NCBI GenBank assembly: GCA_009787405.1
Contig: WRGA01000124.1
Coordinates: 9,706 to 73,705, forward strand
Direction: 5' to 3'
Length of the DNA: 64,000 bases
Source: Candidatus Azobacteroides sp.
GTDB lineage: Bacteria; Bacteroidota; Bacteroidia; Bacteroidales; WRGA01
Shown here: in pieces, positions 10,285 to 56,849 of the stretch
Layout: the number at the start of each line of letters is the position of its first letter
Numbering within the stretch: the first letter of the stretch is position 1
Program-made: the position numbers and the translations under genes
Notes under the pieces: model-generated
The model's input: the letters and a program-made list of their open reading frames with translations, nothing else
Told to the model about the DNA's origin: nothing
The model's database searches: none

Positions 10285-13200
10285 TTAAACAACGATGTTG
10301 ACGATTTTTTTAGGAACGATAATCACTTTTTTGGGTGTTTTTCCTTCCAGCCATTTTTGAGACTGTTCGTGTTCCAGAACCGCTTTCTCTATTTCTTCGT
10401 TGGCGGCTTCCGCGGGAAAATCGAGGTTGAATCGCGATTTTCCGTTAAACGAAATGGAATAGGTGAATGAATTTTCTTTCAAATATTCCTCGTCCCAAAC
10501 CGGCCATTTTTCATCACAAATCGTATTGTTGTTCCCGATCGAATGCCAAAGTTCTTCGGCAATATGAGGAGCAAACGGCGCAATCAAAATCAACAGGTTA
10601 CCCAGTATTTCCTTTTTATTACACTTCAACGCCGTCAATTCGTTTACACAAATCATAAAAGCGCTTACGGAGGTATTGAACGAGAAATGCTCGATATCCG
10701 AAGTCACTTTCCTGATCAGTTTATGCAACGATTTCAATTCTTCTTTGGTCGGAGCTTCATCGGATACCGACAATTGATTTTCCGTATAAAACAAGTTCCA
10801 TAATTTGCGCAAAAAACGATGCACGCCGTCGATACCGTTGGTGTCCCACGGTTTGGAAATTTCCAGCGGGCCGAGAAACATTTCGTACATCCGCAACGTG
10901 TCGGCGCCGTATTTTTTCACCACATCGTCGGGATTGACCACGTTAAACATCGATTTCGACATTTTTTCGATGGCGTAACCGCAGATATATTTTCCGTTTT
11001 CGAGAATGAATTCGGCATTTTTGTATTCGGGATTCCAAGCACGGAATTTTTCGATGTCGAGCACATCATTCTCCACGATGTTTACATCCACGTGAATAGG
11101 CGTAACATCGTATTGAGATTTCAAGTTATACGACACGAACAGGTTGTCTCCCTGTACCCGGTACACGAAATTGGAACGTCCCTGAATCATCCCTTGATTG
11201 ATCAATTTCTTGAATGGTTCGTCTTCACAAACAACACCCAAGTCGAACAAGAATTTATTCCAAAAACGGCTGTAAATCAAATGCCCCGTCGCATGTTCGG
11301 TACCGCCGATGTATAAATCGACATTCCTCCAATATTCATTTGCCTCCTTCCCTACCAACGCATTCTCGTTATGCGGATCCATATAACGCAAATAATAGGC
11401 GGAAGAACCGGCAAAACCGGGCATGGTGTTCAATTCCAAAGGATAACCGTTATACGTCCAATCTTTGGCTCGTCCCAACGGCGGTTCGCCTGTTTCGGTA
11501 GGCAGGAACTTATCAATTTCGGGCAATTTTATCGGCAAATCTTTTTCGTCTACCGTATAGGGCATGCCGTCTTTGTAATAAATCGGAAACGGTTCGCCCC
11601 AATAGCGTTGACGACTGAATATCGCATCGCGGAGACGATAATTTACCTTACGCTTTCCGAGCCGGCGTTCTTCGACTTCTTTGACTGCCGAACGGATCGC
11701 CTCTTTCACTGTCAATCCGTTCAAAAAACCGGAATTAATCATGATCCCGTCTTTGGCGTCAAAGCTTTCTTCCGATACATCGCATCCTTCGATCAATGGA
11801 ACGATCGGTAAATTAAAATGCTTCGCAAATGCGTAGTCTCTGCTGTCGTGAGCAGGAACTGCCATAATGGCACCCGTTCCGTAACCGGCTAACACATAGT
11901 CGGAAATCCAAACAGGAATTTTTTCGTTGTTGAACGGATTCACCGCATACGATCCCGAAAACACCCCCGTCACCTTTTTATCGGCGATACGTTCTCTTTC
12001 CGTTCTTTTCTTCGTAGCGTCCAAATATAATTTAACTTCTTCTTTTTGTTCCGGCGTAGTCAATTTTTCTGTCAATTCGCTTTCAGGAGCCAATACCATG
12101 AACGTCACCCCGAAAATAGTGTCGGCGCGTGTGGTGAACACCGTAAAAAAGTCATCTTCCGGTTCTTGACCGGCGGAGTCGACATTGCTTGGGGTGGAGA
12201 CGGTCTCATCGAATTGGACATCTTCCGACATCAATTCCGACATTTTTTCGAAAGGAGGAATGGAATCCAATCGCTGTTTTATTTTCCGGATCACAAAATC
12301 CAAATCGGAAAAAATCTCGTTTTCTTCAATCCGGAGCACTCTGAAATCATGATTCGACAAAACGACGGTCCGTTCTTTCATATACTGCATGTACTCGGTT
12401 GTATCGGACTCTTCCGAAACAATCTCCACGATCAGGCGTTTCCGGGGAAAAACGAAATCCGCCGTAAAAAAAGCGACCGGCGCTCTTCTTTTAGCGTCAT
12501 GCCCGATCTGATGTATCAAAAAAGCATCCCAAAGAATATCGTGCGCTTGAGAGGTTTTAACAGCCGGTCGTGCGGCTTTAACCGGTTTAAATTGTATTTC
12601 CACACCTTCCGACCGACCGATCCAATGCCGCTGCGTATCTTTTAACGACTCCGTCCAGTCGATCTGTTCCAATCCGTCCAATAAACGTTGAGCATACGCC
12701 GAAACGCGCAAACACCATTGTTTCATGATTTTCTGCTCGACCGGATATCCTCCGCGAATAGACAATCCTTCGCTGACTTCATCATTTGCCAAAACCGTAC
12801 CCAACTTGGGACACCAATTCACGGGGGTATCTCCCAGATAAGCAATCCGGTAATTCAGCAAAATCTGTTGTTTTTCTTTTTCGCTTTTTTCATTCCATTC
12901 TTTCGCCGTAAACGAAAGTTCCTCTCCACAAGCTGCATTTAAATTACCGGTTCCGTAAATTTCGAAATGTTTGATCAGTTTTTCGACCGGTTCCGCTTTT
13001 TGCCGGTTATTGTCGTAGAAATGATGAAACATTTGAATAAACGCCCATTGCGTCCATTTGTAATATCCGGGATCACAGGTTCGGATTTCCCGCCTCCGGT
13101 CGTAACTGAACCCGATCTGATCTAACTGCTCACGGTAACGGGCAATGTTATTTTGTGTGGTGACGGCGGGATGTTGCCCCGTCTGAATCGCATATTGTTC

Positions 13201-13455
13201 GGCGGGAAGCCCGTATGCGTCGTATCCCATCGGATGCAACACATCAAAGCCTTTCAATCGTTTGTAACGGGAATAAATATCCGAGGCAATGTACCCCAAC
13301 GGATGCCCGACATGCAATCCCGCCCCCGATGGATACGGAAACATATCGAGTACATAATATTTCGGTTTGTTATTGTTTTCGACAACTTTATAGGTTTCAT
13401 TCTTAGCCCAAAACTCCTGCCACTTTTTTTCGATGTCCCTAAAATTATATTCCAT
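10285..13455 (-). CDS. leuS: Leucine--tRNA ligase with ~140 aa DUF559/Vsr-like insertion
   Basis: [14 protein letters not shown] (HIGH), [24 protein letters not shown]; 1056 aa, longer than usual. Confidence 0.97.
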
Positions 13456-13563
13456 AAAAGCAATGGTATTGAATCATAACGGTATAAGTTCTTCCGTCCG
13501 ACGGATAAATAAGAGGCAAAGATAGTCAAAAGCCCATAAAGGTGATTCTTTTCTTTTTTCTTT

Positions 13564-13758
13564 TTGAATAAAGGAAGTACTTTCGGGAGTTCTTCGGGCT
13601 TTATAACCTGCGCTTCGTGCGATAGCAACGAATATGTGGAAACCATTAACAACAACTGTAAAACGATGCTCGAAGAGTTGAAATCGGCTTATGAGAAAAT
13701 GCCCGCCATAAAAGACGAAGAAATAACCTTTTTGCGAAGCCTTTTGGAAAAGAAATGA
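13564..13758 (+). pseudogene. Possible C-terminal remnant of an XRE-type regulator
   Basis: EELKSAYEKM..IKDEEITFLRSLL resembles the coiled tail of Bacteroidota HTH proteins; no HTH and no good start. Confidence 0.3.
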
Positions 13759-14054
13759 TTCATATTTCTCTCTAAGCGCTCGCGCAGTTTTATAAACCGT
13801 GCGTTATTAACGGCGCGCCAATTCCGATTTATCGGAAAACCACGCAAGTTTTGGATTCAAAAAACGGGGATTATCATCATGGAAAAAAATCTTTCTCCGG
13901 TAAGGGCTGTCATATTCGTAGAGTTTGTTGTCACAAATAATTAATAACAACTTGCTTTGTGCAACTATAGCCGTTGATGAGCAAAGCAAATTGTTATTAA
14001 CGAACTCGATTTGAACTTAAACAGACTTTTTGATTAGTCAGTAAGATCAAATAA

Positions 14055-22360: not shown

Positions 22361-23269
22361 ATGAATCGTTCGTCGCTCATAAAAGCGGAAGCTCTCCGTT
22401 TGGGGTTTGACGCCTGCGGAATTGCTCAAGCCGGATTTGTCGGACAACATGCCGCATTTCTCGATGACCGGTTGAAAAAGGGATACGGGGCAGGAATGAA
22501 ATACATGAGTAATCATGTCGAAAAACGATGCGATCCGAGGCTTTTGGTGGAAAATGCCAAGTCTGTCATTGTCGTCGCGTTGAATTATTATCCCGAAAAA
22601 AAACAACCCGGACATCTTCCCCAAATTGCTTATTATGCCTACGGAAATGATTACCACGTCGTTATCCGGAATAAATTGCATCAATTGTCGGAGTATGTCA
22701 ACCGGGAAATCACTTCGGCTTCAGGCAGATGTTTCACCGACAGCGCTCCGGTTTTGGAAAGGTATTGGGCAATGAGGGCCGGCATCGGTTTTATCGGGAA
22801 AAACACCAATCTGATCATTCCGCGGAAAGGGTCTTATTTCTTCTTGGGAGAATTGATTGTCGATATTCCGCTTGAATATGATTCTCCTGTCAAAAAAAAT
22901 TATTGCGGAAAATGTCTGAAATGTTTAGACGCTTGTCCGACCAAAGCATTGGAAAAGCCGTTTTGTTTAGATGCGGGAAAATGTATTTCTTATCTGACCA
23001 TCGAACATAAAGGACAGCCGGATGAAAAATATCACCTTCTGCCGGAAAACAGGTTTTTCGGTTGCGACATTTGCCAGCAAGTTTGTCCGTGGAACCGTTT
23101 CTCACAACCGCACACGCATCCCGAATTAATCTCCGGCAACGAATTGGTATCCAAAAGCACTGAAGAGTGGTTGCGCATGAATGAAGAAGAATTTTCAAAT
23201 CTGGCAAAAAATTCTCCTCTTTTCCGCACCGGATTGAAAAATCTTCAACGAAATCTGCAAAAAAAGTAA
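22361..23269 (+). CDS. queG: Epoxyqueuosine reductase QueG
   Basis: DYH, DSAPVLER, GSYFFLGE, CGKCLKCLDACPT, GCDICQQVCPWN. Confidence 0.93.
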   Translation: MNRSSLIKAEALRLGFDACGIAQAGFVGQHAAFLDDRLKKGYGAGMKYMSNHVEKRCDPRLLVENAKSVIVVALNYYPEKKQPGHLPQIAYYAYGNDYHVVIRNKLHQLSEYVNREITSASGRCFTDSAPVLERYWAMRAGIGFIGKNTNLIIPRKGSYFFLGELIVDIPLEYDSPVKKNYCGKCLKCLDACPTKALEKPFCLDAGKCISYLTIEHKGQPDEKYHLLPENRFFGCDICQQVCPWNRFSQPHTHPELISGNELVSKSTEEWLRMNEEEFSNLAKNSPLFRTGLKNLQRNLQKK

Positions 23270-24102: not shown

Positions 24103-26112
24103 ATGAAAAAATTAACAATTATAGGGTTGGTATTGTCGAGCTCATGGTGTATTTCGGCACAAATTCTTAAGCCCGTCAAATGGTCGTATGCCATAAAAGA
24201 TTCAAAAACACCTGAAACTGAGATTATCATTACCGCCAAAATCGATAAGGGCTGGCATTTATACGACATGAATCTGCCCGAAGGCGGCCCGATTTCCACG
24301 TCGTTCACCTTCGACGAAATAAAAGGAGCCAAACTGAAAGGGAAGGTAACCGCACAAAACGCTTCCTTAAAAAGTTTCGACCCAAACTTTGAAATGGATT
24401 TGCGCCGGTTCGAAAATACGGCTGTTTTTGTCCAAAAAATTGTCATTACCGACAAAAAAACGTTTTCGATAAAAGGAACGACCGAGTTTATGGCCTGCAA
24501 TGACAGTCAGTGTCTGCAACCGACAAAAGATGAATTCGGGTTCGATGCGGAAAGCATCGCCGGGATGAATGTCGAGGCATTATCCGATGTCAAAAAACAA
24601 TCTTTGCCCGATTCGGCGGTTTTATCTGTCGATTCGGCGAAAACAGCCGTCGGGACATCCATACCTGTACCTTTACCTTCTGACTCGGTCTGGTGGAAAC
24701 CGGTGATCGCGGAGTTGCAAAATTACGGCGAACACGATTTGGCCGATAAAGCATGGTACCTCATTTTCTTTTTGGGTTTTGCGGGCGGATTGCTGGCATT
24801 GCTCACACCGTGTGTCTGGCCGATTATTCCCATGACCGTCAGCTTTTTCCTGAAACGCAACGACAACCGGAAAAAAGCCGTCCGACAAAGTTTTATCTAC
24901 GGTATCTCCATCATTGTCATTTATTTGGCGTTGGGGTTGATCATCACGGCGATATTCGGCGCAAGCGCTTTAAATGATTTATCGACTAATGCCGTTTTCA
25001 ATTTGTTGTTTTTTGCCCTGCTGATTGTATTTGCCGTTTCGTTTTTCGGAGCGTTTGAGATCACGTTACCGTCGTCATGGACCAATAAAATGAATGATAA
25101 GGCCGATAGTTCAATGGGTTTGTTGAGCATTTTTTTCATGGCATTTACGCTTGTCTTGGTGTCGTTTTCGTGTACAGGCCCCATCATCGGCACATTACTG
25201 GTGCAGGCGGCATCCATGGGAGCAACCCTCGGGCCGGCAATCGGGATGTTTGGCTTTGCATTGGCTTTGGCCATTCCGTTCACGCTGTTTGCAATCTTCC
25301 CGTCGTGGCTGAAAGAATTGCCCAAATCGGGAGGTTGGTTGAATTCGGTGAAAGTCGTTCTCGGATTTTTGGAACTGGCTCTTGCCCTGAAATTTCTCTC
25401 GGTCGCCGATTTGGCTTATCATTGGAATATCCTCGACCGGGAAGTGTTTTTGTCTTTATGGATTGCTGTTTTTGCTTTGCTCGGATTTTATCTGCTGGGG
25501 AAAATCAAATTCCCGCACGACGGTGAAGTCAAACACGTTTCCATTCCGCGTGTTTTTTTGGCATGGATCACTTTTGCATTTACGATCTATCTTATTCCCG
25601 GGTTATGGGGAGCGCCGCTGAAATCGATCAGCGCTTTTTCGCCTCCGTTGTTTACGCAAGATTTTAATTTATACACCGGTCAGGTGCATGCGAAATTCAA
25701 TGATTATGAAACGGGAATGGAATATGCGCGAAAAAACGGAAAGCCGGTGATCATCGATTTTTCGGGATATGGGTGTGTCAATTGCCGGAAAATGGAAGCC
25801 GCTGTTTGGACTGATTCGAAAGTGAAGGATTTGCTGGAAAAAGATTATGTGTTGATCACTCTTTTTGTCGACGACAAAGCGTTGTTACCGGCTCCGATAT
25901 CGGTTGACGACGACGGAAAGAACCGCACGCTCAAAACCGTCGGAGACAAATGGGGGTACCTGCAACGCCATAAATTCGGAGCCAATGCGCAACCTTTTTA
26001 TGTTTTGCTGAATAACGAAGGCAACCCGATCGCCAAATCGTACAGCTACGATGAAAATATCGAGAAATTTGTCACATATTTACAACACGGCTTGAAAGAA
26101 TACAAAAACTGA
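24103..26112 (+). CDS. dsbD: Protein-disulfide reductase DsbD family
   Basis: CNDSQC, LTPCVWP, SCTGP, SGGWL, GCVNC; start ATG 24103 after a TATATTTG box at 24068. Confidence 0.9.
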   Translation: MKKLTIIGLVLSSSWCISAQILKPVKWSYAIKDSKTPETEIIITAKIDKGWHLYDMNLPEGGPISTSFTFDEIKGAKLKGKVTAQNASLKSFDPNFEMDLRRFENTAVFVQKIVITDKKTFSIKGTTEFMACNDSQCLQPTKDEFGFDAESIAGMNVEALSDVKKQSLPDSAVLSVDSAKTAVGTSIPVPLPSDSVWWKPVIAELQNYGEHDLADKAWYLIFFLGFAGGLLALLTPCVWPIIPMTVSFFLKRNDNRKKAVRQSFIYGISIIVIYLALGLIITAIFGASALNDLSTNAVFNLLFFALLIVFAVSFFGAFEITLPSSWTNKMNDKADSSMGLLSIFFMAFTLVLVSFSCTGPIIGTLLVQAASMGATLGPAIGMFGFALALAIPFTLFAIFPSWLKELPKSGGWLNSVKVVLGFLELALALKFLSVADLAYHWNILDREVFLSLWIAVFALLGFYLLGKIKFPHDGEVKHVSIPRVFLAWITFAFTIYLIPGLWGAPLKSISAFSPPLFTQDFNLYTGQVHAKFNDYETGMEYARKNGKPVIIDFSGYGCVNCRKMEAAVWTDSKVKDLLEKDYVLITLFVDDKALLPAPISVDDDGKNRTLKTVGDKWGYLQRHKFGANAQPFYVLLNNEGNPIAKSYSYDENIEKFVTYLQHGLKEYKN

Positions 26113-38690: not shown

Positions 38691-40565
38691 ATGAAATTCA
38701 AGTATGATGTAATTGTTGTCGGAGCAGGACACGCCGGATGCGAAGCGGCTCATGCCTCGGCAAAGTTGGGGTCTCAAACATTATTGATAACAATGGACAT
38801 GCACAAGATCGCTCAAATGAGTTGCAACCCGGCCATGGGAGGTATCGCCAAAGGACAAATAGTACGTGAAATTGATGCACTGGGTGGTCAATCCGGAATT
38901 ATTACGGATAAAACAGCCATTCAATTCCGGATGTTGAATCGTTCAAAAGGCCCTGCCATGTGGAGTCCGAGGTCTCAAAGCGACCGGCAGAAATTCAGCG
39001 AGTTGTGGAGAAATACATTGGAAAACACCGACAATTTATTTATATGGCAAGATGTTGTCAACGAGCTGATCATAAAGGAGAATAAAATAGAAGGAGTAAA
39101 AACCGGCATGGGCGTAACATTCGAAGCGCGGTCTGTAATATTAACTACCGGAACTTTTATGAACGGACTCATTCATATCGGAAAAACACAAATCAAAGGA
39201 GGACGAATCTCAGAACCTATGTCTACCGGTATTACCGAACAATTGGTCAATTTAGGGTTTACTGCCGGAAGAATGAAAACCGGCACACCGGTCAGAATCG
39301 ACGGAAGAACTATAGACTTCAGTCTTACCGACGAACAAAAGGGAGAAAATGATTTTCACAAGTTTTCCTATCTGGATTATCCTCATCGAGCATTAAAACA
39401 ACTCAGTTGTCGGATTCTTTATACAAATGAAGAGGTGCACGAATGCCTTCGCTCAGGATTAAAAGAATCCCCCTTATACAACGGTCAAATTCAAAGTGTC
39501 GGGCCAAGATATTGCCCGAGTATCGAAACAAAAATTGTAACTTTTGCCGACAAAACACAACATCAACTGTTTTTGGAACCTGAAGGAGAAACAACACAAG
39601 AATATTATCTGAACGGTTTTTCGTCATCTCTCCCACTCGATATTCAATTAAAAGCATTACAAAAAATTCCGGCATTCAAGAATATTCAAATCTATCGCCC
39701 GGGATACGCCATAGAATACGACTACTTTGATCCGACACAACTTTATCACAATCTCGAAACCAAACAAATAAAAAATTTATTTTTCGCGGGACAAATCAAC
39801 GGCACGACCGGATATGAAGAAGCAGCAGGGCAAGGAATCATTGCCGGAATAAACGCACACCTCAAAAGTCACGGAGAAGGAGAGTTCACATTAAAAAGAA
39901 ACGAAGCGTATATCGGAGTGCTTATTGACGATTTGGTAACAAAAGGAGTCGACGAACCTTATCGAATGTTTACATCAAGAGCCGAGTTCAGAATGTTATT
40001 ACGACAGGATGATGCTGACATGAGATTAACAGAAAAATCATATAAAATAGGGTTAGTCGAAAAAAATAGATATGAGTTGTTGCTCGAAAAAAAAGAAGAA
40101 ATAAACAAAATTATAAACACAACAAAAAACATTATCCTAAAACCGGAAAAAATAAACGCCGCATTAGAAGTATTAAAAACAACTCCGATTAAACAACCCA
40201 CAAAATTAATTTCCTTATTAACGAGACCACAAATCACAATCGAAAACATAAAAAATCACATCCCTGATTTAGCCCAACAAATTGAAAAAATTCCAAATCG
40301 AAAGGAAGAAATTACAGAAGCAAGTGAAATTATCATCAAATATTCAGGGTACATTGAACGCGAAAAATTGATTGCGGAAAAAGCCTCAAGATTAGAAAAT
40401 ATCAAAATAAAAGGAAAATTTGAATACAATAATATCCAATCTTTATCCACCGAAGCTCGTCAAAAATTAAATAAAATTCAACCGGAAACCATTGCTCAAG
40501 CAAGCAGAATACCGGGAGTATCTCCGAATGACATCAACGTTTTGTTAGTTTTATTAGGAAGATAA
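38691..40565 (+). CDS. mnmG: tRNA U34 carboxymethylaminomethyl modification enzyme MnmG (GidA)
   Basis: VVGAGHAGCEAA, MSCNPAMGG, GPRYCPSIE, AGQINGTTGYEEAA, EPYRMFTSRAE. Confidence 0.97.
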   Translation: MKFKYDVIVVGAGHAGCEAAHASAKLGSQTLLITMDMHKIAQMSCNPAMGGIAKGQIVREIDALGGQSGIITDKTAIQFRMLNRSKGPAMWSPRSQSDRQKFSELWRNTLENTDNLFIWQDVVNELIIKENKIEGVKTGMGVTFEARSVILTTGTFMNGLIHIGKTQIKGGRISEPMSTGITEQLVNLGFTAGRMKTGTPVRIDGRTIDFSLTDEQKGENDFHKFSYLDYPHRALKQLSCRILYTNEEVHECLRSGLKESPLYNGQIQSVGPRYCPSIETKIVTFADKTQHQLFLEPEGETTQEYYLNGFSSSLPLDIQLKALQKIPAFKNIQIYRPGYAIEYDYFDPTQLYHNLETKQIKNLFFAGQINGTTGYEEAAGQGIIAGINAHLKSHGEGEFTLKRNEAYIGVLIDDLVTKGVDEPYRMFTSRAEFRMLLRQDDADMRLTEKSYKIGLVEKNRYELLLEKKEEINKIINTTKNIILKPEKINAALEVLKTTPIKQPTKLISLLTRPQITIENIKNHIPDLAQQIEKIPNRKEEITEASEIIIKYSGYIEREKLIAEKASRLENIKIKGKFEYNNIQSLSTEARQKLNKIQPETIAQASRIPGVSPNDINVLLVLLGR

Positions 40566-40570: not shown

Positions 40571-40588
40571 TCGTTCCACGTGGAACGA
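40571..40588. promoter_or_regulatory. parS site 3
   Basis: 18 bp palindrome TCGTTCCACGTGGAACGA just after the mnmG stop. Confidence 0.85.
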
Positions 40589-40701
40589 GTAAAATTATCT
40601 CTCAAAAAAGACTGAAAAATCAATAAAAAAGAATACTTTTGTCAAAATTTCAAAAAAAAATTCGCGAAATCTGACGAAACATCATTAGTAAAAACATCAT
40701 C

Positions 40702-40717
40702 AGTTCCACGTGGAACT
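40702..40717. promoter_or_regulatory. parS site 4
   Basis: AGTTCCACGTGGAACT, ending 10 bp before the apt ATG. Confidence 0.85.
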
Positions 40718-40726
40718 TCAAAAAAA

Positions 40727-41257: not shown

Positions 41258-41270
41258 ACCGAATTATCCC

Positions 41271-43067: not shown

Positions 43068-43130
43068 CAGAAAAAATGTTATGAGTCAAAAATTCAAACA
43101 CAAATCCAGCTTCTAATTCATCATTAAAAA

Positions 43131-43583
43131 ATGAGAGTATTGATTCAACGGGTATCAGAAGCATCGGTAGCAATACACGAAACCATAAAATCCTCCATTC
43201 GTTCAGGACTGCTGGTTTTTGTCGGAATAGAAGACAGTGACAACCCGGAAGATATAACATGGTTATGCAAAAAAATCGTCAATCTGAGAATTTTCGACGA
43301 TGAAAACAGAATCATGAACAAATCCGTCATTGATATAAACGGCGAAATATTAGTTGTCAGTCAATTTACGTTACATGCCTCCACACAAAAAGGGAATCGT
43401 CCTTCCTATATCAGAGCATCCAAACCTGAAAAAGCAATTCCCATGTATGAAATGTTCTGCGTGGAACTTTCCGAAGTGCTCGGCAAAGCAATTCAAACAG
43501 GTGTCTTCGGAGCAGAGATGAAAGTATCATTAATCAATGACGGCCCGGTAAGTATTTGGATTGATTCGAAGCAAAAAGAATAA
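43131..43583 (+). CDS. dtd: D-aminoacyl-tRNA deacylase
   Basis: IQRV, SQFTL, KGNRPS, NDGPV. Confidence 0.96.
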   Translation: MRVLIQRVSEASVAIHETIKSSIRSGLLVFVGIEDSDNPEDITWLCKKIVNLRIFDDENRIMNKSVIDINGEILVVSQFTLHASTQKGNRPSYIRASKPEKAIPMYEMFCVELSEVLGKAIQTGVFGAEMKVSLINDGPVSIWIDSKQKE

Positions 43584-43625
43584 AAGAGATTTGCATAGTA
43601 TTCAATCATTCAAAATCCCTCAATA

Positions 43626-43641
43626 TGTTCCACACGAAACA
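43626..43641. promoter_or_regulatory. Degenerate parS site
   Basis: TGTTCCACACGAAACA; a further weak match TGTTCTGCGTGGAACT lies at 43453 inside dtd. Confidence 0.45.
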
Positions 43642-43799
43642 TAGGAAAAAAATATCACCCTCATTTTCAATATTTTTATAGATTTTTATTCCGGGAAATA
43701 ATTTTTTTGAAAAAAATCTGCAAAAAAATATCCATATATAAAAAATTATATATATTTGATGCCAAAATAACAACATGTTTAACTTATTTTTAAACAATC

Positions 43800-45824: not shown

Positions 45825-45852
45825 TCTACTAAAATCCGAGAAAAACAACCAC

Positions 45853-47754: not shown

Positions 47755-47779
47755 TTATCTATATACAGATAACATCAAC

Positions 47780-47920
47780 TAAGCATGTCATAAAAAATAA
47801 TTTATATTTTAAACACCAAGTCACAAAGACGGAAAGGCGCGAAGTTTAGAATCTTTGTGACGTGGCGTCTTTGCATCTTCGCGTTTAAAATATTAGACAT
47901 TAAATTCTGCCATGTACTTA
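47780..47920. mobile_element. MITE-like repeat family, copy 7 (full length, reverse of copy 1)
   Basis: TAAGCATGTCATAAAA...TTTTAAACACCAAG...CTTCGCGTTTAAAA...ATTAAATTCTGCCATGTACTTA. Confidence 0.7.
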
Positions 47921-48134
47921 AACCGGAATTATTATAAATTAAGTATTTTTAAAAGAAAAATCCGATACCGAAATTGAAAAAAAGCCCTATATTTGCAGGG
48001 AATGTTCACTTTTACATTGGCATAAAAACCATGAAACATACAATTTGTACATTTACATTTTTGCATTGTTTGTGTATACTCACTTTTTCCGTGTACGCAA
48101 ACGGAATAAAGAATAAAACATAAATCAATCTAAT

Positions 48135-48695
48135 ATGTCATATCGTCCTAACAACTCCCTCTCCGAAGAAGTTCTCGAACACACCAAGGTTAACAGCGCC
48201 GGATGCTACCAGTGCGGCAAATGTTCAGCGGGGTGTCCTTTGGCCGAAGAAATGGACTATACTTCAAGCATGGTCATGCGAATGCTGCAAACGGAAGATA
48301 AAGCAATTGAAAAAGAACTGTTGAAATCGCAAAGCATTTGGTTGTGCTCTTCTTGCGAAATGTGCATTTCCCGTTGCCCGATGTCAATCGATATTCCGAA
48401 AGTCATGGATTACCTGCGGCAAAAATCCGTGAAAGAAGGGCTACAAAACAAAACGGCGGACAAAAACATTGTCGCTTTTCACCGTTCATTTCTGGATATG
48501 ATTCAATTAACAGGCCGTTCGTATGAACCGGGAATGATCATGGACTACAAATTGAGAAGTAAAGATTTCTTCCAAGATTTAACCATGGCACCGAAAATGT
48601 TCAGTCGAGGCAAGTTACCGATTTTTCCCGAATCGGTGAAAAACCGCAAGAATATTCAAGATATTTTCAAAAAAAGTAAAAAAGAAAGTATTTAA
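48135..48695 (+). CDS. hdrC: Heterodisulfide reductase-like subunit C
   Basis: CYQCGKCSAGCP and WLCSSCEMCISRCP; operon context. Confidence 0.88.
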   Translation: MSYRPNNSLSEEVLEHTKVNSAGCYQCGKCSAGCPLAEEMDYTSSMVMRMLQTEDKAIEKELLKSQSIWLCSSCEMCISRCPMSIDIPKVMDYLRQKSVKEGLQNKTADKNIVAFHRSFLDMIQLTGRSYEPGMIMDYKLRSKDFFQDLTMAPKMFSRGKLPIFPESVKNRKNIQDIFKKSKKESI

Positions 48696-48696
48696 C

Positions 48697-49548
48697 ATGA
48701 AAAAGAAATTAGGATTTTACCCCGGTTGTTCCTTGGAAGGAACCTCAAGAGAATACAGTGAATCCGTGATTTCTCTTGCCAAACGATTTGACATCGAATT
48801 GGAGGCTGTCCCCGATTGGAACTGCTGCGGAGCATCCTCCGCTCATAATTTAAACAAAATACTTTCGTTGGCGCTTCCCGCAAGAATATTGGCACAAGCC
48901 GAAAAAGCGGGAATAAAAGAAATTCTGGTTCCCTGCGCGGCTTGTTCGAATCGGTTGATCACCACGCAACACGAATTATTCGAAGAACCCGAATTGAAAA
49001 AAGAAGTGGAAGAAACAACGGGAATGTCCCTCTCTGCTCCGATTCGGATCTTAAATGTGATTCAATTCATTCAGGAATATATCGTTCCCGAATTGCCGAA
49101 TAAAAAAGTCAATGCTTTCGACAAAAAAGTGGCTTGTTATTACGGCTGTCTGCTGGTTCGTCCGCACGATATTTTGCAATTCGACCGTTTGGAAGACCCG
49201 CAAAGCATGGACGAAATCATGAAAACATCGGGAGCCGAACCGATTGACTGGCCGTTCAAAACCGAATGCTGCGGAGCAGGTTTATCGTTAAGCCGAAGCG
49301 ACTTAATCGGAAAATTATCGGGAAAAATCGTTAACGAAGCCACCGAAAGAGGCGCCGAAGCTATTATCGTTGCCTGTCCGATGTGTCATGCCAATCTGGA
49401 TATGAGACGTCCCGTCATTAATAAATATATGGGTAAAAAACTGAATATCCCTGTTCTTTATATCACACAAGTCATCGGAATGGTTTGCGGATTAAGCCCG
49501 AAAGACACGGGAATCAAACGTCATTTGGTAAAAGTAAATATAAATTAA
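48697..49548 (+). CDS. hdrB: Heterodisulfide reductase-like subunit B
   Basis: Two CCG domains (YPGC..WNCCG..CAAC; YYGC..ECCG..ACPMC). Confidence 0.92.
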   Translation: MKKKLGFYPGCSLEGTSREYSESVISLAKRFDIELEAVPDWNCCGASSAHNLNKILSLALPARILAQAEKAGIKEILVPCAACSNRLITTQHELFEEPELKKEVEETTGMSLSAPIRILNVIQFIQEYIVPELPNKKVNAFDKKVACYYGCLLVRPHDILQFDRLEDPQSMDEIMKTSGAEPIDWPFKTECCGAGLSLSRSDLIGKLSGKIVNEATERGAEAIIVACPMCHANLDMRRPVINKYMGKKLNIPVLYITQVIGMVCGLSPKDTGIKRHLVKVNIN

Positions 49549-49608
49549 ATAAGTAAACGAAATTCAAGTCCGAAAACTTGTTCATCCGTTTACTCGTCAA
49601 CTGAAATT

Positions 49609-51609
49609 ATGGCACGAATAGGAGTTTTTGTATGTCATTGCGGCGAAAACATTTCGGCGACGGTAGATTGTGAAAATGTATCGGAACGCGCCGCAAAACT
49701 GCCCGGAGTGGTTTACAGCACCGATTACAAATACATGTGTTCCGATCCCGGACAATCGAAAATCAAAGAAGCGATTATCGAACATAAGCTTACAGGAGTC
49801 GTTGTTTCGGCCTGTTCTCCGCGAATGCACGAACCGACTTTCAGAAAAGCCTGCGCCGAAGCCGGTTTAAATCCGTATCTCTGCGAAATGGCCAACATTC
49901 GCGAACAATGTTCATGGGTTCACGAAAAAAGCGAAACAACCACGAATAAAGCCTTTGATTTGGTGCGTATGTTGGTTGAAAAAGTAAAAAATAATCATCC
50001 GCTCGAATCCATTAAAGTACCCGTAAACAAAACGGCAGTCGTTGTCGGCGGAGGCGTTGCGGGAATCCAAACGTCGCTGGACATCGCCAATGCAGGACAT
50101 AAAGTCATTTTGGTGGAAAGAGAACCTTCCATCGGCGGACACATGTCGCAGCTTTCGGAAACATTTCCCACGCTGGACTGTTCCCAATGCATTCTTACCC
50201 CGCGAATGGTGGAAGTGGCACAGCATCCGAACATTACACTTTATACATATTCCGAATTAGAACATACGGACGGATTTATCGGAAATTTCAACGTCCGCAT
50301 CCGTCGGAAAGCAAGAAGCATAAACGAAAAATTATGTACGGGTTGCGGATTATGCTGTACCAAATGTCCGGCCAAAAAAATAGAAAGCGAATTTGAACAA
50401 GGATTAGCGTACAGAACGGCCATTTATGTTCCGTTTCCTCAAGCCGTTCCGAACAAACCCGTCATCGACAGAGTAAATTGCCGGTATTTCCAAACAGGAA
50501 AATGTAAAGTCTGCCAAAAACTTTGTCCCACAGGAGCCGTCGATTTCGAACAAAAAGACGAAATCATCGAAGTCAAAGCGGGAGCCATCGTACTTGCAAC
50601 CGGGTTTGAAGTCAAAAACACCGATTTCTTCCCTGAATACGGTTTCGGAAAATATAAAGATGTCATCAACGGACTGCAATTCGAACGATTGGCATCGGCA
50701 TCAGGACCGACACAAGGAGAAATCCGACGTCCGTCCGACGGAAAAATCCCCGAAAAAATTGTTTTCGTAGCCTGTGCCGGTTCGCGCGATGTCGCCAAAG
50801 GCATTCCTTACTGTTCGAAAATTTGTTGCATGTACACGGCTAAACACGCCATGTTGTACAAACATAAAGTTCACGAAGGAACACCGTATGTTTTTTACAT
50901 GGACATTCGCGCAGCAGGTAAAAACTACGACGAGTTCACACGACGGGCCATTGAAGAAGACGGGGCAAAATACATTCGCGGACGTGTGGCGAACATCTAC
51001 GAAAAAAACGGAAAACTGATTGTCAAAGGAGCAGATACTCTAATGAACGGAAGACCCGTCGAAATAGACGCGGATATGGTGGTATTGGCAACCGCCGCTG
51101 TATCGTGCGAAGGTTCCGAATCATTGGCACAAAAACTACACGTTTCGTACGATTCATATAAATTCTTTGCCGAAGCACATCCCAAATTGAAACCTGTAGA
51201 AACCAACACAGCAGGAATCTATCTGGCGGGAGCATGTCAAGCGCCGAAAGACATCCCCGAATCCGTTGCCGCAGCATCGGGAGCAGCCGCAAAAGTTATT
51301 TGTCTGTTTGCCGGCAGCGAATTAACGCGCGAACCCATCGTGGCCAAAGTGAACCGCATGCCGCCTCCTATTTTCTCGACTTGCATGGGATGCGGAATGT
51401 GTAAAGAGGTTTGTCCGTATCAAGCCATCGATAAAGAAGAAATCAAAAACAGAAACGGAGAAACCATTAAAACGATTGCCAAAATCAATCCCGGATTATG
51501 TCAAGGTTGCGGAATTTGTGTTTCTTTCTGCAAATCCAAATCCATCGACTTGGAAGGATATTCAAATAAACAGGTGTATGAAGAAGTGTTGGCATTATTA
51601 AATAGTTAG
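49609..51609 (+). CDS. hdrA: Heterodisulfide reductase-like subunit A (bifurcating FAD/FeS)
   Basis: GVFVCHCG, ACSPRMHE, NIREQCSW, GGGVAG, TFPTLDC, YCSKICC, four ferredoxin motifs. Confidence 0.95.
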   Translation: MARIGVFVCHCGENISATVDCENVSERAAKLPGVVYSTDYKYMCSDPGQSKIKEAIIEHKLTGVVVSACSPRMHEPTFRKACAEAGLNPYLCEMANIREQCSWVHEKSETTTNKAFDLVRMLVEKVKNNHPLESIKVPVNKTAVVVGGGVAGIQTSLDIANAGHKVILVEREPSIGGHMSQLSETFPTLDCSQCILTPRMVEVAQHPNITLYTYSELEHTDGFIGNFNVRIRRKARSINEKLCTGCGLCCTKCPAKKIESEFEQGLAYRTAIYVPFPQAVPNKPVIDRVNCRYFQTGKCKVCQKLCPTGAVDFEQKDEIIEVKAGAIVLATGFEVKNTDFFPEYGFGKYKDVINGLQFERLASASGPTQGEIRRPSDGKIPEKIVFVACAGSRDVAKGIPYCSKICCMYTAKHAMLYKHKVHEGTPYVFYMDIRAAGKNYDEFTRRAIEEDGAKYIRGRVANIYEKNGKLIVKGADTLMNGRPVEIDADMVVLATAAVSCEGSESLAQKLHVSYDSYKFFAEAHPKLKPVETNTAGIYLAGACQAPKDIPESVAAASGAAAKVICLFAGSELTREPIVAKVNRMPPPIFSTCMGCGMCKEVCPYQAIDKEEIKNRNGETIKTIAKINPGLCQGCGICVSFCKSKSIDLEGYSNKQVYEEVLALLNS

Positions 51610-51997
51610 TAGACAAGTAAACAAGTTGACGAGTTGGGGTAAGTCAGGGAAAATAGAAAAATAAGTAAAAATAGCATTAGGTTCAGCTTCCGAATTAGAA
51701 ACTCAACTTATCATTTCTGTAGAGCTTCAATTTATGAATAAAGAAAATTTTGAATTATTAAACAATATGAATAACCAAATAATCAAGATGTTATCATCAT
51801 TAATAAAAGCAGTAAGCAAATAGACGAGTAAACGAGTTGACAAGTTAGTGGTAAGTCACATTAACCAATTAAAAATACTGAATTCAGTACTTGTCAATTC
51901 GTTTACGCGCCAACTCGTTTACTAAAAAATATTAATTAACCCGTAAACTTTAAATGAGTCCGAGTTGTCAACTCATTTACTTGTTTACTCGTCAACT
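51610..51997. repeat. Arrays of (A/G)AC(A/G)AGT-type octamers in direct and inverted orientation
   Basis: 51610-51646 resembles 51821-51858 (direct); inverted arrays at 51889-51923 and 51966-51997; same units at 49551-49602. Confidence 0.75.
51668..51823 (+). pseudogene. C-terminal half of a four-helix-bundle (23S rRNA IVP-like) protein
   Basis: Translates KIALGSASELETQLIISVELQFMNKENFELLNNMNNQIIKMLSSLIKAVSK*; N-terminus missing. Confidence 0.75.
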
Positions 51998-52002
51998 AAA
52001 AT

Positions 52003-52434
52003 ATGTTTGAACCGAAAATAGTCGCATTTGTGTGCAACTGGTGCACATACGCAGGGGCTGACCTGACGGGAACCAACCGGATCAAGTATTCACCCGACGT
52101 AAAAATTATTCGTTTTCCGTGTACGGGACGCATTGATTTTATGTTGCTGATAAAAGCATTTTCCAACGGAGCCGACGGAATCATCGTATCGGGATGCCAT
52201 CCGAACGATTGTCATTATACGTCGGGAAATTTCCATGCACGCCGCCGCTGGACGATTTTCCGCAGTTTGTTGGATTTTATGGGAATCGATGTCAACCGCA
52301 TTACATTCACGTGGGTATCCGCAGCCGAAGGAGCCAAATGGGCCGAAGTGGTTGATTCAACCGTCGAAAAAATAAAAAAATTAGGCCCGTATAAAGAATA
52401 CCGGCCCATTGCTAACGAAATAGTGGAGGAGTAA
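52003..52434 (+). CDS. flxD: MvhD/FlxD-like [2Fe-2S] subunit
   Basis: FVCNWCTYAGAD, PCTGRID, GCHPNDCHY, WVSAAEG. Confidence 0.9.
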   Translation: MFEPKIVAFVCNWCTYAGADLTGTNRIKYSPDVKIIRFPCTGRIDFMLLIKAFSNGADGIIVSGCHPNDCHYTSGNFHARRRWTIFRSLLDFMGIDVNRITFTWVSAAEGAKWAEVVDSTVEKIKKLGPYKEYRPIANEIVEE

Positions 52435-52435
52435 T

Positions 52436-53239
52436 ATGTCGACAATGATCGAAACGGCAAAAAAATTATTGAAAAACGGAGATGTAAACATCGTCATCGG
52501 ATACAGCGAAGGAAGCCAAGGGCGCGTTCGACCGTTTTTCGCGCGCAACGAAGAAGAAGCGGAAAACCTTGTTTACGATAATCGCTGCACGCAAAACCTC
52601 GCCATGTATGTATCCAAGAAAGAAATCTCAAAATACGGGAAACCTGCTATTGTCGCTAATATTCACACGCTTCGCGGAATCATTCGTCTGGCGGTGGAAA
52701 ACCAAATAAAAGACGGTGATTTAATTGCTTTGCATATAAATGACAAAGATGAAATGACAGTTTGCTCCACGTTGGAGGAAATCGAAACACATTTGGCGAC
52801 TGTCACGCCTCAAATCAGCGACGAAGATAAAGTCATGATTGAAAAACTCGATGCAATGTCCCTCACGGAACGCCGGAATTTCTGGGAAAAAGAAATGGAA
52901 AATTGCATCAAGTGCTATGCCTGCCGTCAAGCATGTCCGTTGTGTTATTGCACTCAATGTACGGTGGAAGTGAATCAACCGCAATGGATCCCCGTCGAAG
53001 CAAGCATCGACGGAAATCTGGAATGGCATATTATGCGCGCCATGCACTTGTCGGGACGTTGCATTTCGTGCGGACAATGCGGCGATGCCTGCCCCGTCGG
53101 CATTCCCATTCATCTGCTGCCCATGAAACTGTCCCAAGAAGTGAAAAACATTTACGGAAGCATTTCAGGAATGAATCGCAGTGAAGGCTGTGCAATGGCA
53201 ACTTATCAACCCGGCGACAAAGAGAATTTTATCGGATAA
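52436..53239 (+). CDS. flxC: FlxC-like 4Fe-4S protein
   Basis: CIKCYACRQACPLCYC..C; RAMHLSGRCISCGQCGDACP. Confidence 0.8.
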   Translation: MSTMIETAKKLLKNGDVNIVIGYSEGSQGRVRPFFARNEEEAENLVYDNRCTQNLAMYVSKKEISKYGKPAIVANIHTLRGIIRLAVENQIKDGDLIALHINDKDEMTVCSTLEEIETHLATVTPQISDEDKVMIEKLDAMSLTERRNFWEKEMENCIKCYACRQACPLCYCTQCTVEVNQPQWIPVEASIDGNLEWHIMRAMHLSGRCISCGQCGDACPVGIPIHLLPMKLSQEVKNIYGSISGMNRSEGCAMATYQPGDKENFIG

Positions 53240-53259
53240 CCCGACTCAAACGAAATAAA

Positions 53260-54285
53260 ATGAATACTCAGATAAAAATCCTTAAATCAGCAAACTACAT
53301 TAAGCTGCTGCAAAAACTGTTTGATCATAAAAAAAACATATACGGTCCCGTCCGGCAAGGCAAACGGATCGGTTACCAAAAAATCAATTCGGCAAATGAG
53401 TTGGCGACCGATTTCATCATTCCCGATATGTCGGCCAAGTCGTTTGTTTTTCCGTGTATCGAAAAGCTTTTTTCTTTTACGAAAGATAAAGAAAACGTTG
53501 AAATTCAAAATTTAAACTTAGACAATATTCCCGAAAAAATAATTGTCGGCATTCGTCCATGCGATGCATTAGGAATGAAAAGCCTGAAAGCAATTTTCGG
53601 CCGGGACCCTGCCGATTCGATATTCCAAACCCGGCTGGAGCGCACCACTTTCATCGGATACGCTTGCAACCAAGCGGATGATTACTGCTTTTGCACCTCC
53701 ATCAACGGCGGGCCGGGCAACACCGAAGGAAGCGACATTTTATTGACCAAAACAGATTCAGGCGATTACATTGCCGAAATCATCACGCCGAAAGGAGAAT
53801 CAATCGTTGCATCAGCACCTGAATTATTCGAAGACGGAAGCGGTTTGGACAAACAAAAATATTTGGCGGATGTTCCCAAACGTTTCGACGATTCAAATCT
53901 GGAAAATAAAATGAAGGCGGCTTTTGATACCAATGTATTCGACGAATACGCCATTCGCTGTATCGGATGCGCCGCATGTGCTTATGTATGCCCGACCTGT
54001 GCCTGTTTCGATATTCAAGACAGAACCAAAGGCAGTAAAGGAGAACGCATCCGCACATGGGACAGTTGTGGTTTAAAGCTTTTCACCTTACACACTTCGG
54101 GACACAATCCGCGCGAAACACAAGGAGTACGCTGGAGACAACGTTTAATGCACAAATTCTCTTATATGCCCGAACGCTTGGAAGTGAGAGGTTGCGTAGG
54201 ATGCGGACGCTGCTCCCGCCGTTGTCCCGTCGACATGAACATTGCCGAAAGTATCAATATAATAACCGATGAAAATATTATCTGA
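53260..54285 (+). CDS. flxB: FlxB (AsrA-like) 4Fe-4S protein
   Basis: GIRPCD, CFCTS, CIGCAACAYVCPTCACF, HKF, CVGCGRCSRRCP. Confidence 0.82.
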   Translation: MNTQIKILKSANYIKLLQKLFDHKKNIYGPVRQGKRIGYQKINSANELATDFIIPDMSAKSFVFPCIEKLFSFTKDKENVEIQNLNLDNIPEKIIVGIRPCDALGMKSLKAIFGRDPADSIFQTRLERTTFIGYACNQADDYCFCTSINGGPGNTEGSDILLTKTDSGDYIAEIITPKGESIVASAPELFEDGSGLDKQKYLADVPKRFDDSNLENKMKAAFDTNVFDEYAIRCIGCAACAYVCPTCACFDIQDRTKGSKGERIRTWDSCGLKLFTLHTSGHNPRETQGVRWRQRLMHKFSYMPERLEVRGCVGCGRCSRRCPVDMNIAESINIITDENII

Positions 54286-54329
54286 TCAGCAACATTGACA
54301 GATCAGTAAATGAACACATTAACGAGAAT

Positions 54330-55166
54330 ATGGAACAAAATATATATTTACCGTATCGCATGAAGATTGTGAAAATCACGGAAGAAGCGCCTTTCGTTCG
54401 AACTTTCCGGTTGGAATTTATAAATCCCGAAGAAGGTGAAAAATTTACGTTTAAAACAGGACAATTTGCCGAATATTCCGTTTTCGGCGAAGGAGAATCC
54501 ACGTTTTGCATTGCTTCGCCGCATACGAGAAAAGGTTACGTTGAATGCACGTTTCGTCAGGCAGGACGAGTAACCACTGCTTTATCTAATTTGGAAGAAG
54601 GAGACCTCATTGGTTTTCGCGGACCCTACGGAAATATTTTTCCCATTGATCAATGGAAGGATAAAAATCTGGTATTCATTGCGGGAGGAATTGCGCTTCC
54701 GCCGATGCGCAGCGTAATCTGGTCGTGTTTGGATAACCGCGGAAATTACAAAGAGATCACCGTATTTTACGGGGCTAAAACCGCAAACGATTTAGTGTAT
54801 AAACACGAATTAAAAGAATGGGAAGAACGTCCCGACATAAAACTTTACACCACCGTTGACCCGGGTGGTGAAACTCCCGACTGGAAAGGAGAAGTAGGAT
54901 TTGTTCCGGCTATTGTCGATAAATTCGCACCTACTGCGGAAAATACCATTGCCATTGTTTGCGGCCCTCCGGTGATGATTAAAAATACATTTCCCGTATT
55001 GAAAAAATTAGGCTTCGCCGACGAAAACATTTATACCACGCTCGAAAACAGAATGAAGTGCGGTTTCGGAAAATGCGGCCGTTGCAATGTGGGGAAAACC
55101 TACGTCTGTAAAGACGGACCTGTATTTACGGCAGCTCAATTGGCCGAATTACCGAACGAGTATTAA
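54330..55166 (+). CDS. flxA: FlxA (AsrB/PyrK-like) FAD/NAD(P)H oxidoreductase
   Basis: RGPYGN, IAGGI, CGPPVM, MKCGFGKCGRC...CKDGPVF. Confidence 0.85.
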   Translation: MEQNIYLPYRMKIVKITEEAPFVRTFRLEFINPEEGEKFTFKTGQFAEYSVFGEGESTFCIASPHTRKGYVECTFRQAGRVTTALSNLEEGDLIGFRGPYGNIFPIDQWKDKNLVFIAGGIALPPMRSVIWSCLDNRGNYKEITVFYGAKTANDLVYKHELKEWEERPDIKLYTTVDPGGETPDWKGEVGFVPAIVDKFAPTAENTIAIVCGPPVMIKNTFPVLKKLGFADENIYTTLENRMKCGFGKCGRCNVGKTYVCKDGPVFTAAQLAELPNEY

Positions 55167-55292
55167 GGCATCTAAAACTTTTTAACGTTAAAATCGTTAT
55201 AAATAATAGCAGTCTCAATAAATTTTAATCTTATTAATCAAACTCCGATGCTTCTCTTTGGAAGGAGGAGGGAGCTTTAAAACTAATCGCTC

Positions 55293-55628
55293 ATGGGAAA
55301 ATTTGTTGTAAGTACCCGTAAAAACGGAGAATTTCAATTTGTTTTAAAAGCAGGAAACGGACAAATTATTTTGGTAAGCGAAGGTTATACCACAAAAACC
55401 GCTTGCTTAAAAGGAGTGGAAGCGGTAAAGAAAAATGCTCCGATTGATGAACGATATGAACGTAAAACATCCAAAAACGACAAACATTTTTTCAATTTAA
55501 AAGCAAGCAACGGACAAATCATCGGAACAAGTGAAATGTATGAAAGTAAAGCCGCCTGCGAAAACGGTATCGAATCGGTAAAAAAGAATGCACCCGATGC
55601 AGATGTTGAAGATGAAACCGTAAAATAA
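55293..55628 (+). CDS. YegP/DUF1508 protein
   Basis: Two repeats of F.LKA.NGQII..SE.Y..K.AC..G.E.VKKNAP. Confidence 0.92.
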   Translation: MGKFVVSTRKNGEFQFVLKAGNGQIILVSEGYTTKTACLKGVEAVKKNAPIDERYERKTSKNDKHFFNLKASNGQIIGTSEMYESKAACENGIESVKKNAPDADVEDETVK

Positions 55629-55653
55629 CGGAAAACAAATAATCATTACCGTT

Positions 55654-55983
55654 ATGACCCTCGAAGAACTCCAACGACAAATCGACGACTGGATAAAAGT
55701 ATATGGCGTCCGTTATTTCAGCGAACTGACAAACATGGCTGTTTTAACCGAAGAAGTCGGGGAATTGGCACGAATCATGGCACGTACTTACGGAGATCAA
55801 TCATTTAAAAAAAGCGACGAAAAACACTCGCTGAGCGATGAAATCGCCGATGTGCTTTGGGTATTGGTTTGCATCGCCAATCAAACGGGAGTGAATTTGA
55901 CCGAAGCCATGACAAAAAACATGGAAAAGAAAACGGACAGAGATAAAGACAGACATTTAAATAATAACAAATTACAATCATAA
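55654..55983 (+). CDS. MazG-like nucleotide pyrophosphohydrolase
   Basis: LTEEVGELAR...DEIADVL. Confidence 0.92.
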   Translation: MTLEELQRQIDDWIKVYGVRYFSELTNMAVLTEEVGELARIMARTYGDQSFKKSDEKHSLSDEIADVLWVLVCIANQTGVNLTEAMTKNMEKKTDRDKDRHLNNNKLQS

Positions 55984-55985
55984 AA

Positions 55986-56849
55986 ATGGGAAAATACACC
56001 GACATCTTAAAAGAATATAAATTCAATCTTTCTGACGAAGAAATCAAGAATGAAATTCAAAAATTACAACCGAAAGTCAATAAAGAAACACTCAAACTAT
56101 TGTTCGGGTGTATGGATTTTACCTTCCTGAATACCACCGACAATGCAAGCCATGTCAAAAAAATCACCGAAAAATTAAATGCTTTCGAAAACGAATTTAA
56201 TGAAATGCCCAATGTAGCGGCAGTATGCGCTTATCCTTCATTAATTCAACCTTTGCGGAAATATCTTACGGTAAACGATATTGCAATTGCTTCGGTTGCG
56301 GGTGGTTTTCCGAGCGCTCAAACATTTATCGAAGTAAAAATAGCCGAAACCGCTTTGGCTGTTGCCGAAGGTGCTCAAGAAATAGATGTGGTGATGTCGA
56401 TCGGTAAATTTTTGGAAGGAAAATACGATGAAGTCGGCGAAGAACTGGAAGAAATTAAACATTCCTGCAGAGAAGCCAAATTGAAAGTCATTTTGGAAAC
56501 AGAAGTTTTAACATCAGCCGATATTTATAAAGCCTCACTGATCGCCATGTATGCCGGTGCAAACTTCATCAAAACATCTACAGGAAAACTCTCCGTCGGC
56601 GCCACACCCGAAGCGGCATACATTATGTGCAGAAGCATTGCCGATTTTTACAAAAAAACAAATCTGGAAGTAGGATTTAAAGCGTCGGGAGGAGTTGCAA
56701 CAACATCCGATGCGGTTATTTATTATGCCATTGCGGAAAATATTTTAGGAAAAGAACGGGTGAACCGTAACTTGTTCAGAATCGGTGCAAGCCGATTAGC
56801 CAATAATTTATTAAGCAACATTTATGAAAAAACGATCGTTTTCTTTTAA
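55986..56849 (+). CDS. deoC: Deoxyribose-phosphate aldolase
   Basis: GAQEIDVV, LKVILET, FIKTSTGK, GFKASGG, FRIGAS. Confidence 0.94.
   Translation: MGKYTDILKEYKFNLSDEEIKNEIQKLQPKVNKETLKLLFGCMDFTFLNTTDNASHVKKITEKLNAFENEFNEMPNVAAVCAYPSLIQPLRKYLTVNDIAIASVAGGFPSAQTFIEVKIAETALAVAEGAQEIDVVMSIGKFLEGKYDEVGEELEEIKHSCREAKLKVILETEVLTSADIYKASLIAMYAGANFIKTSTGKLSVGATPEAAYIMCRSIADFYKKTNLEVGFKASGGVATTSDAVIYYAIAENILGKERVNRNLFRIGASRLANNLLSNIYEKTIVFF

Follow-up and report, generated by a model that had tools for sequence, protein, structure and literature searches.

CGG codons at tryptophan positions in a termite-gut Bacteroidales genome: probable arginine substitutions under context-specific T-to-C pressure

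Seven codons in a 64,000-nucleotide stretch of DNA from Candidatus Azobacteroides sp. raise the question of what CGG means in this genome. The stretch, called the window here, is G000:C124:9706-73705, where G000 is the genome that holds it. An earlier reading, made from the sequence alone, had noted CGG at presumed tryptophan positions in the genes for LeuS, QueG, DsbD, MnmG, a DeoC-family aldolase and two proteins provisionally called FlxC and FlxB. All seven codons were found at the coordinates and on the strands claimed for them, in the peptide contexts quoted, and the closest relative, a genome of the same genus (G001), has Trp (TGG) at 7 of the 7 sites. Such codons might signal an incipient change of the genetic code, editing of the mRNA, errors in the assembly or true replacement of Trp by Arg. 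The comparisons described below favor the last of these. With a probability of about 0.8, the case is one of ordinary substitution under unusually strong, context-specific T-to-C pressure, and not of new decoding.

G000 is a metagenome bin of 2.79 Mb in 125 contigs, with a GC content of 41.2% and a completeness of 91%. Homologues of the window's genes bear Bacteroidales names, the stretch recurs in termite-gut metagenome runs, and the lineage is one of uncultured termite-gut Bacteroidales. For each gene, 30 relatives within its order were searched, and residues in alignment columns were counted without the gene's own sequence. The DNA surrounding leuS in six relatives had little synteny with the window. 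G002, G004, G009, G020, G026 and G028 denote relatives other than G001.

Trp-to-CGG change and the T-to-C bias

The sequence-only reading had proposed that codons be tabulated at conserved-Trp columns. A genome-wide pairwise comparison, without profile alignments, was used as a stand-in. All stop-to-stop open reading frames (ORFs) of G000 of at least 60 amino acids (n = 15,598), rather than called genes, served as tblastn queries against four contigs of G001 (785 kb) and 363 kb of G002. Non-overlapping matches with an identity of at least 50% were retained, and matches containing stop codons were dropped (22 of 235 for G001 and 10 of 102 for G002). Among 75,793 codons aligned with G001, TGG occurred 845 times in that relative. 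G000 kept TGG at 760 of these positions, in agreement with the earlier remark that most Trp codons are unchanged, and had CGG at 19. The reverse combination, TGG in G000 and CGG in G001, was found at 1 of 810 positions (19 versus 1; binomial p = 4e-5). The next most frequent codons at G001 TGG positions were TTT (7), CTG (6) and TTC (6). Other codons one step from TGG were rarer still, with TTG and TGT at three positions each and AGG, GGG and TCG at none, and the suspected excess of CGG over these neighbors is thereby borne out.

The comparison with G002 gave the same direction, with CGG replacing TGG at 6 of 343 positions and one reverse case. Three of the six sites also belong to the G001 set, and the two comparisons together yield 22 distinct sites, to which QueG is added. 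Since both relatives have Trp at the three shared sites, the change occurred on the G000 branch. At the 151 positions with Trp in both G001 and G002, G000 has TGG at 147, CGG at three and TAT at one. The CGG-at-Trp pattern is therefore real, non-random and one-directional.

The same change was observed where the encoded amino acid is not affected. At synonymous NNY codons followed by GG, T in G001 was replaced by C in G000 801 times and C by T only 25 times, while T was kept at 61 sites and C at 660. The comparison with G002 replicated this result (186 versus 12). Before AG the counts were 151 and 2. The ratio of T-to-C to C-to-T changes fell to 3.5-4.9 before GA, GC and GT and was about 1 before TT and CC. 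In four genes, the NNY position before GG is C in 96% of cases in G000, compared to 44% in G001 and 52% in G002. The complementary change, CCA to CCG, was counted 92 times and its reverse four times. In non-coding DNA, taken as the DNA outside every ORF of at least 70 codons, CGG made up 0.68 of CGG plus TGG in G000 and 0.39 in G001; the TGA, TGC and TGT contexts gave 0.32-0.37. As the same change is seen at silent, non-coding and complementary-strand sites, it is a bias of the DNA itself that affects either strand and extends inside and outside genes, which is what directional pressure would be expected to produce.

The composition of the genome and of its proteins shows the same tendency. 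The observed/expected ratio of CpG in non-coding DNA is 1.39 in G000 and 0.97 in G001, the GC content is 41% versus 37%, and the CG dinucleotide is 1.53-fold commoner in G000. CGG/CCG is the trinucleotide most enriched relative to G001 (1.73-fold), and its CpG ratio in four shared genes is the highest of the 31 genomes compared. Amino acid replacements that create CpG were skewed between G001 and G000, with W>R at 19/1, Q>R at 184/40, H>R at 61/29 and C>R at 22/9. Y>H, F>L, N>S, M>V, M>T and T>A were balanced, without excess in G000. The absence of excess in these six classes indicates that the bias depends on context, and it rules out a plain genome-wide AT-to-GC transition bias as the whole story. 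Compared to G001, Arg is used 16% more, Pro 7% more and Gly 6% more, and Ile, Asn and Gln are each used 7% less. A further relative, G009 (2.2 Mb; L009, L101, L140), has C at 89% of NNY positions before GG and at 90% of those before AG with otherwise similar codon usage, and it has the fewest TGG codons (23) in the shared genes. The T-to-C bias may have more than one origin.

Replacement of Trp appears to have been filtered by selection. About 93% of silent T before GG was changed, compared to 2.2% of Trp codons, which indicates that selection removes most TGG-to-CGG changes. Mean local identity was 0.65 around Trp positions replaced by CGG and 0.79 around retained Trp (Mann-Whitney p = 0.002), the former value being close to the 0.57 around Trp replaced by any other codon. 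Cys-to-Arg changes behaved likewise (0.655 versus 0.804). Replaced sites are thus the less constrained ones, as expected under directional pressure, with the LeuS site as an exception. This lower identity speaks against silent recoding or editing, either of which would sample Trp sites irrespective of constraint.

CGG is also the commonest Arg codon of G000, at 128 per 10,000 codons and 29% of Arg codons (G001, 56 per 10,000). The residues aligned in G001 with 973 CGG codons of G000 were chiefly Arg (589), followed by Q (94), K (87), N (27), H (27), E (24) and W (19). CGG thus did not align mainly with conserved Trp. For 419 CGG codons aligned with G002, the counts were 256 Arg and six Trp. 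Six conserved-Arg columns in four families carry CGG, in line with the earlier observation that the codon is still used at invariant Arg.

Inspection of the tRNA genes, also proposed by the sequence-only reading, pointed the same way. ARAGORN predicted 37 tRNA genes in G000, including one tRNA(CCG) and one tRNA-Trp(CCA). The tRNA(CCG) has discriminator A, with the same acceptor and T arms as the tRNA-Arg(ACG) of G000. At 96% identity to its G002 counterpart, 89% to that of G001 and 79% to that of G004, all of them tRNA-Arg(CCG), and with an identical anticodon loop, it is an ordinary tRNA-Arg, the orthologue of these genes. Neither a loss of Arg identity nor a gain of Trp identity was seen in tRNA(CCG) among the 37 tRNA genes of this 91% complete genome. 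The anticodon stem carries a compensated change from an A-U to a G-C pair relative to G001, G002 and G004, in which CAG/CTG of G001 and G002 became CGG/CCG, the direction of the genome-wide bias. On this comparative evidence, CGG is very probably read as Arg and the Trp-to-Arg substitutions are very probably true ones.

Taken together, these observations suggest that the G000 lineage has been subject to a strong, strand-symmetric, DNA-level drive from T to C before GG and AG, which would convert TGG/CCA to CGG/CCG and TAG/CTA to CAG/CTG. Such a drive would have enriched the genome in CpG and turned CGG into its most used Arg codon, with replacement near complete at unconstrained sites. The same change in a TGG codon is non-synonymous and is mostly purged by selection. 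About 2% of Trp positions, chiefly less constrained ones, have nonetheless been fixed as CGG. We infer that biased mutation or repair, instead of selection on DNA, drives the change, and that cells tolerate the Arg variants or are slightly harmed by them.

The individual sites

Matches to Pfam confirmed LeuS, QueG, DsbD, MnmG and DeoC, and the putative FlxB and FlxC are 4Fe-4S proteins. Conservation of Trp is strong in LeuS, QueG, DeoC and FlxC, but the columns in MnmG, DsbD and FlxB are only aromatic or variable. The sites, an eighth in leuS and two features from other contigs of G000 are listed in Table 1.

Table 1. Positions of the CGG codons, with the tRNA gene and the Vsr-containing frame discussed in the text. 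Coordinates are those of the window unless a contig is named.
Feature	Position	Strand	Remarks
LeuS CGG	13096..13098	-	Otherwise-Trp column of GFSYD-W-xRE; G001 TGG
Second LeuS CGG, absent from the sequence-only list	12286..12288	-	In DUF559-like insert; G001 TGG (HVVWKIKQ vs FVIRKIKQ)
QueG CGG	22469..22471	+	W 20, Y 1, F 1, R 1 among 23 relatives
DsbD CGG, N-terminal domain	24406..24408	+	Variable column: Y 8, W 6, L 3, nine others (n = 26)
MnmG CGG	39411..39413	+	Aromatic column: Y 14, F 7, W 6, H 1 (n = 28); G001 TGG
4Fe-4S protein ("FlxC") CGG	52874..52876	+	W 3, A 1 (4 relatives)
4Fe-4S protein ("FlxB") CGG	53602..53604	+	Weakly conserved column: W 2, T 1, G 1 (4 relatives)
DeoC-family aldolase CGG	56757..56759	+	W 19, Y 1, R 1 (21 relatives)
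tRNA-Arg(CCG)	G000:C102:22273-22346 (L292), outside window	-	Predicted by ARAGORN
Vsr/C-5 methylase frame, 529 aa	G000:C24:2665-4254 (L293), outside window	-	Vsr, residues 25-97; methylase, residues 273-452

In the case of LeuS, the column is Trp in 28 of 28 leucyl-tRNA synthetase (LeuRS) rows from the relatives and in 27 of 27 in the MAFFT column. Among the best 120 database LeuRS proteins, 119 have Trp and one has Leu, and the Leu belongs to the closest protein (P0001). In solved LeuRS structures the site is Tyr in Mycoplasma mobile and Trp in Thermus. The residue aligned with the QueG site is Arg in one solved homologue (5d08), which is the Bacillus QueG, and Ser in another (5d6s). The single Arg among the DeoC relatives comes from another genome and is encoded by AGA. 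Leu in the nearest LeuRS, Arg in the Bacillus QueG and an AGA-encoded Arg in another DeoC suggest that these sites accept other residues. In DsbD, Trp is present in five of the six closest relatives, with TGG in G002, and in MnmG all five closest relatives have Trp.

The LeuS protein is itself unusual in length, at 1056 amino acids compared to about 920 for the majority of relatives. The additional stretch comprises residues ~291-433 (window 12268-12552, minus strand), and residues 302-396 match Pfam DUF559 (PF04480), a restriction-endonuclease-like domain. The insert is common to G001, G002, G004 and G028 and to the three closest database proteins, and the column of the second LeuS codon is comparable solely in relatives that have it. 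Relatives carry short stand-alone ORFs elsewhere that match the insert residues. By its sequence, the insert looks like a mobile endonuclease domain placed in frame within an essential gene.

Alternative readings of CGG and of the bias

Several observations weigh against ordinary substitution under T-to-C pressure, or limit how firmly it can be held. The LeuRS Trp shows no variation among 27-28 relatives and is present in 119 of the best 120 homologues, and Arg at this position is surprising for a working enzyme. In four families named by the sequence-only reading, CGG lies on 3 of 24 conserved-Trp columns, although these families were ascertained through the feature itself. The three-way sample is small, and in it G000 lost Trp at 4 of 151 positions compared to 3 of 150 for G001; with such similar losses, the pressure is visible in the replacing codon more than in total loss. 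Synonymous sites are saturated between G000 and G001, and most silent changes are counted without outgroup polarization, an outgroup being available for part of the sites only. The comparison used ORFs instead of gene calls and was limited to 785 kb for G001 and 363 kb for G002. With 37 tRNA genes in a genome that is 91% complete, an extra tRNA may sit in the missing part. Finally, the data do not separate mutation bias from selection on DNA.

The sequence-only reading had placed ambiguous decoding first among its explanations, with CGG read as Arg and sometimes as Trp at an early stage of CGG-to-Trp reassignment. The codon does fall on strongly conserved Trp columns in LeuS, QueG and DeoC, it is the sole single-step neighbor of TGG in excess at Trp positions, and a further tRNA could be missing from the incomplete genome. 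However, CGG is the commonest Arg codon and aligns with Arg at most of its positions, and misreading would be harmful at thousands of Arg positions. The one tRNA(CCG) found is the orthologue of the relatives' tRNA-Arg(CCG), the replaced sites are biased toward less conserved neighborhoods, and the closest LeuRS among the best 120 has Leu, not Trp. The clades known to have reassigned CGG also differ in GC content and in CGG usage, as described in the next section. The proposal was not upheld, and we regard ambiguous decoding as very improbable. The same low standing is given to the broader idea that CGG is partly Trp or that the mRNA is edited, which would place G000 partway toward a code with CGG=Trp that emerged at a time of abundant, not rare, CGG. 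Site-specific C-to-U editing that restores UGG would require one step at each site, and nothing else speaks for it. The selection filter, the Leu of the closest LeuRS and the excess of Cys, Gln and His changes to Arg all fit plain substitution. The runs listed as containing the stretch included no RNA run. A search of G000 for the DYW deaminase family gave no match, although the control genomes gave none either. Editing is rated as scarcely credible.

Errors of sequencing, assembly or consensus were a further suggestion of the sequence-only reading, and a bin of 125 contigs assembled from a metagenome might contain them. Contigs were compared over 38500-58000; the LeuS, QueG and DsbD sites lie outside this range. 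Independent contigs of the likely source run, at a depth of ~160, showed 0 differences over 38500-47821, 47819-50856 and 50829-58000. Run X3, which belongs to another study, supplies a 224-base contig that agrees with the window at every base of 52701-52924, a segment that includes the FlxC site. None of the 40 differing-letter rows listed, with 141 more beyond them, falls at a CGG site; the rows listed include about seven of the ten places at which the source run differs. The bias is moreover coherent over synonymous, non-coding and tRNA-stem positions, unlike random error. Given the depth and the identical contig from another study, an artefact is most unlikely. Tolerated TG-to-CG mutation pressure, the remaining suggestion of the sequence-only reading, agrees best with the results, since the same change is found at synonymous and non-coding sites, Cys, Gln and His are hit too, and the most constrained Trp positions are spared.

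Three further features of the contigs were noted. A contig of run X2 spans the DeoC site with seven differences, whose positions are not among the rows listed. Window positions 47794-47920 hold a short repeat with a word depth of ~3000 in the source run, compared to ~160 in its flanks, and with many contig ends and several variant letters; this is probably a multi-copy element or a repeat boundary. In contigs of two runs from different studies, position 51635 is joined to 51965, and 329 bases are replaced by the same 20 letters. The joined form has a depth of ~154 in the source run, near the main depth, and this alternative intergenic form coexists with that of the window.

The cause of the T-to-C drive was considered separately from its effect on Trp codons. 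Loss of mismatch repair was rejected as the cause, since MutS (three matches) and MutL are encoded in G000. Another candidate is very-short-patch repair, in which a Vsr endonuclease, together with a cytosine-5 methyltransferase, would convert T:G mismatches to C:G at CTGG/CCGG. G000 encodes a Vsr domain and a C-5 methylase domain in one 529-amino-acid frame, and neither G001 nor G002 has a Vsr match. The methylase part covers the first 182 of 324 profile positions, and the frame is either a fusion or contains a truncated methylase. C precedes 14 of the 19 new CGG codons (9 of 12 in an earlier set) compared to 17% of retained TGG codons, and CTAG is reduced to 86 copies in 2.79 Mb, with a Markov observed/expected ratio of 0.11 in G000 and 0.31 in G001. 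CCWGG is also depleted (0.38 and 0.58). However, the flux was neither confined to the methylase motif nor associated with Vsr among the relatives. It was independent of the preceding base, with forward and reverse counts of 366/12 for ATGG, 59/2 for CTGG, 160/15 for GTGG and 353/3 for TTGG, and C tends to precede all CGG codons of G000 (47-64%). CTGG depletion is equal in G000 and G001 (Markov ratio 0.59 each). G009 has the bias without a Vsr match, whereas in G020 and G026 Vsr is present and the bias is not. Vsr repair is thus an unlikely source of the T-to-C drive.

Substitution under T-to-C pressure has consequences beyond this window. It would serve as a caution for genetic-code screens, because a context-specific substitution bias can put an Arg codon on conserved Trp columns and so mimic incipient reassignment. 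It would also be a clear natural example of how a DNA-level bias can prevail over purifying selection at a minor fraction of Trp sites, a near-invariant LeuRS site among them. The drive before GG and AG itself merits study as a matter of repair and mutation spectrum, and a weaker form of it occurs in at least one more member of the order (G009).

Comparison with known systems

Three known situations resemble the one in G000. Directional mutation pressure and dinucleotide bias shape amino acid composition, and the changes in G000 are of this kind: Arg, Pro and Gly are increased, Ile, Asn and Gln are decreased, and the change seen in Trp codons also prevails at silent and non-coding sites. Unlike ordinary directional pressure, the bias of G000 is sharply specific to T before GG and AG, acts against the GC-rich Trp codon and reaches an otherwise-invariant LeuRS column. 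Vsr repair leaves footprints such as the depletion of CTAG in Escherichia coli. G000 shares with E. coli the T-to-C direction, an extreme CTAG depletion and a Vsr gene, but differs in that the flux does not depend on the base before T and in that the presence of Vsr does not match the bias among relatives.

Reassignment of CGG to Trp is known from Anaerococcus, an RFN20 Bacilli clade and Absconditabacteria. These clades have a GC content of 0.26-0.38 and CGG below ~6-7 per 10,000 codons, with Trp as the inferred meaning (Shulgina and Eddy 2021, PMC8629427). In other cases of reassigned CGG, according to a 2026 preprint (10.64898/2026.04.02.715157), the tRNA(CCG) genes lack the A20 Arg identity element. 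The resemblance of G000 to these systems lies in CGG codons at the Trp positions of homologues, one T-to-C step from TGG. Unlike those clades, G000 is not a low-GC genome in which CGG became rare before its capture: its GC content is 0.41, CGG is used 128 times per 10,000 codons and aligns with Arg at 589 of 973 positions, and its tRNA(CCG) matches the tRNA-Arg of its relatives.

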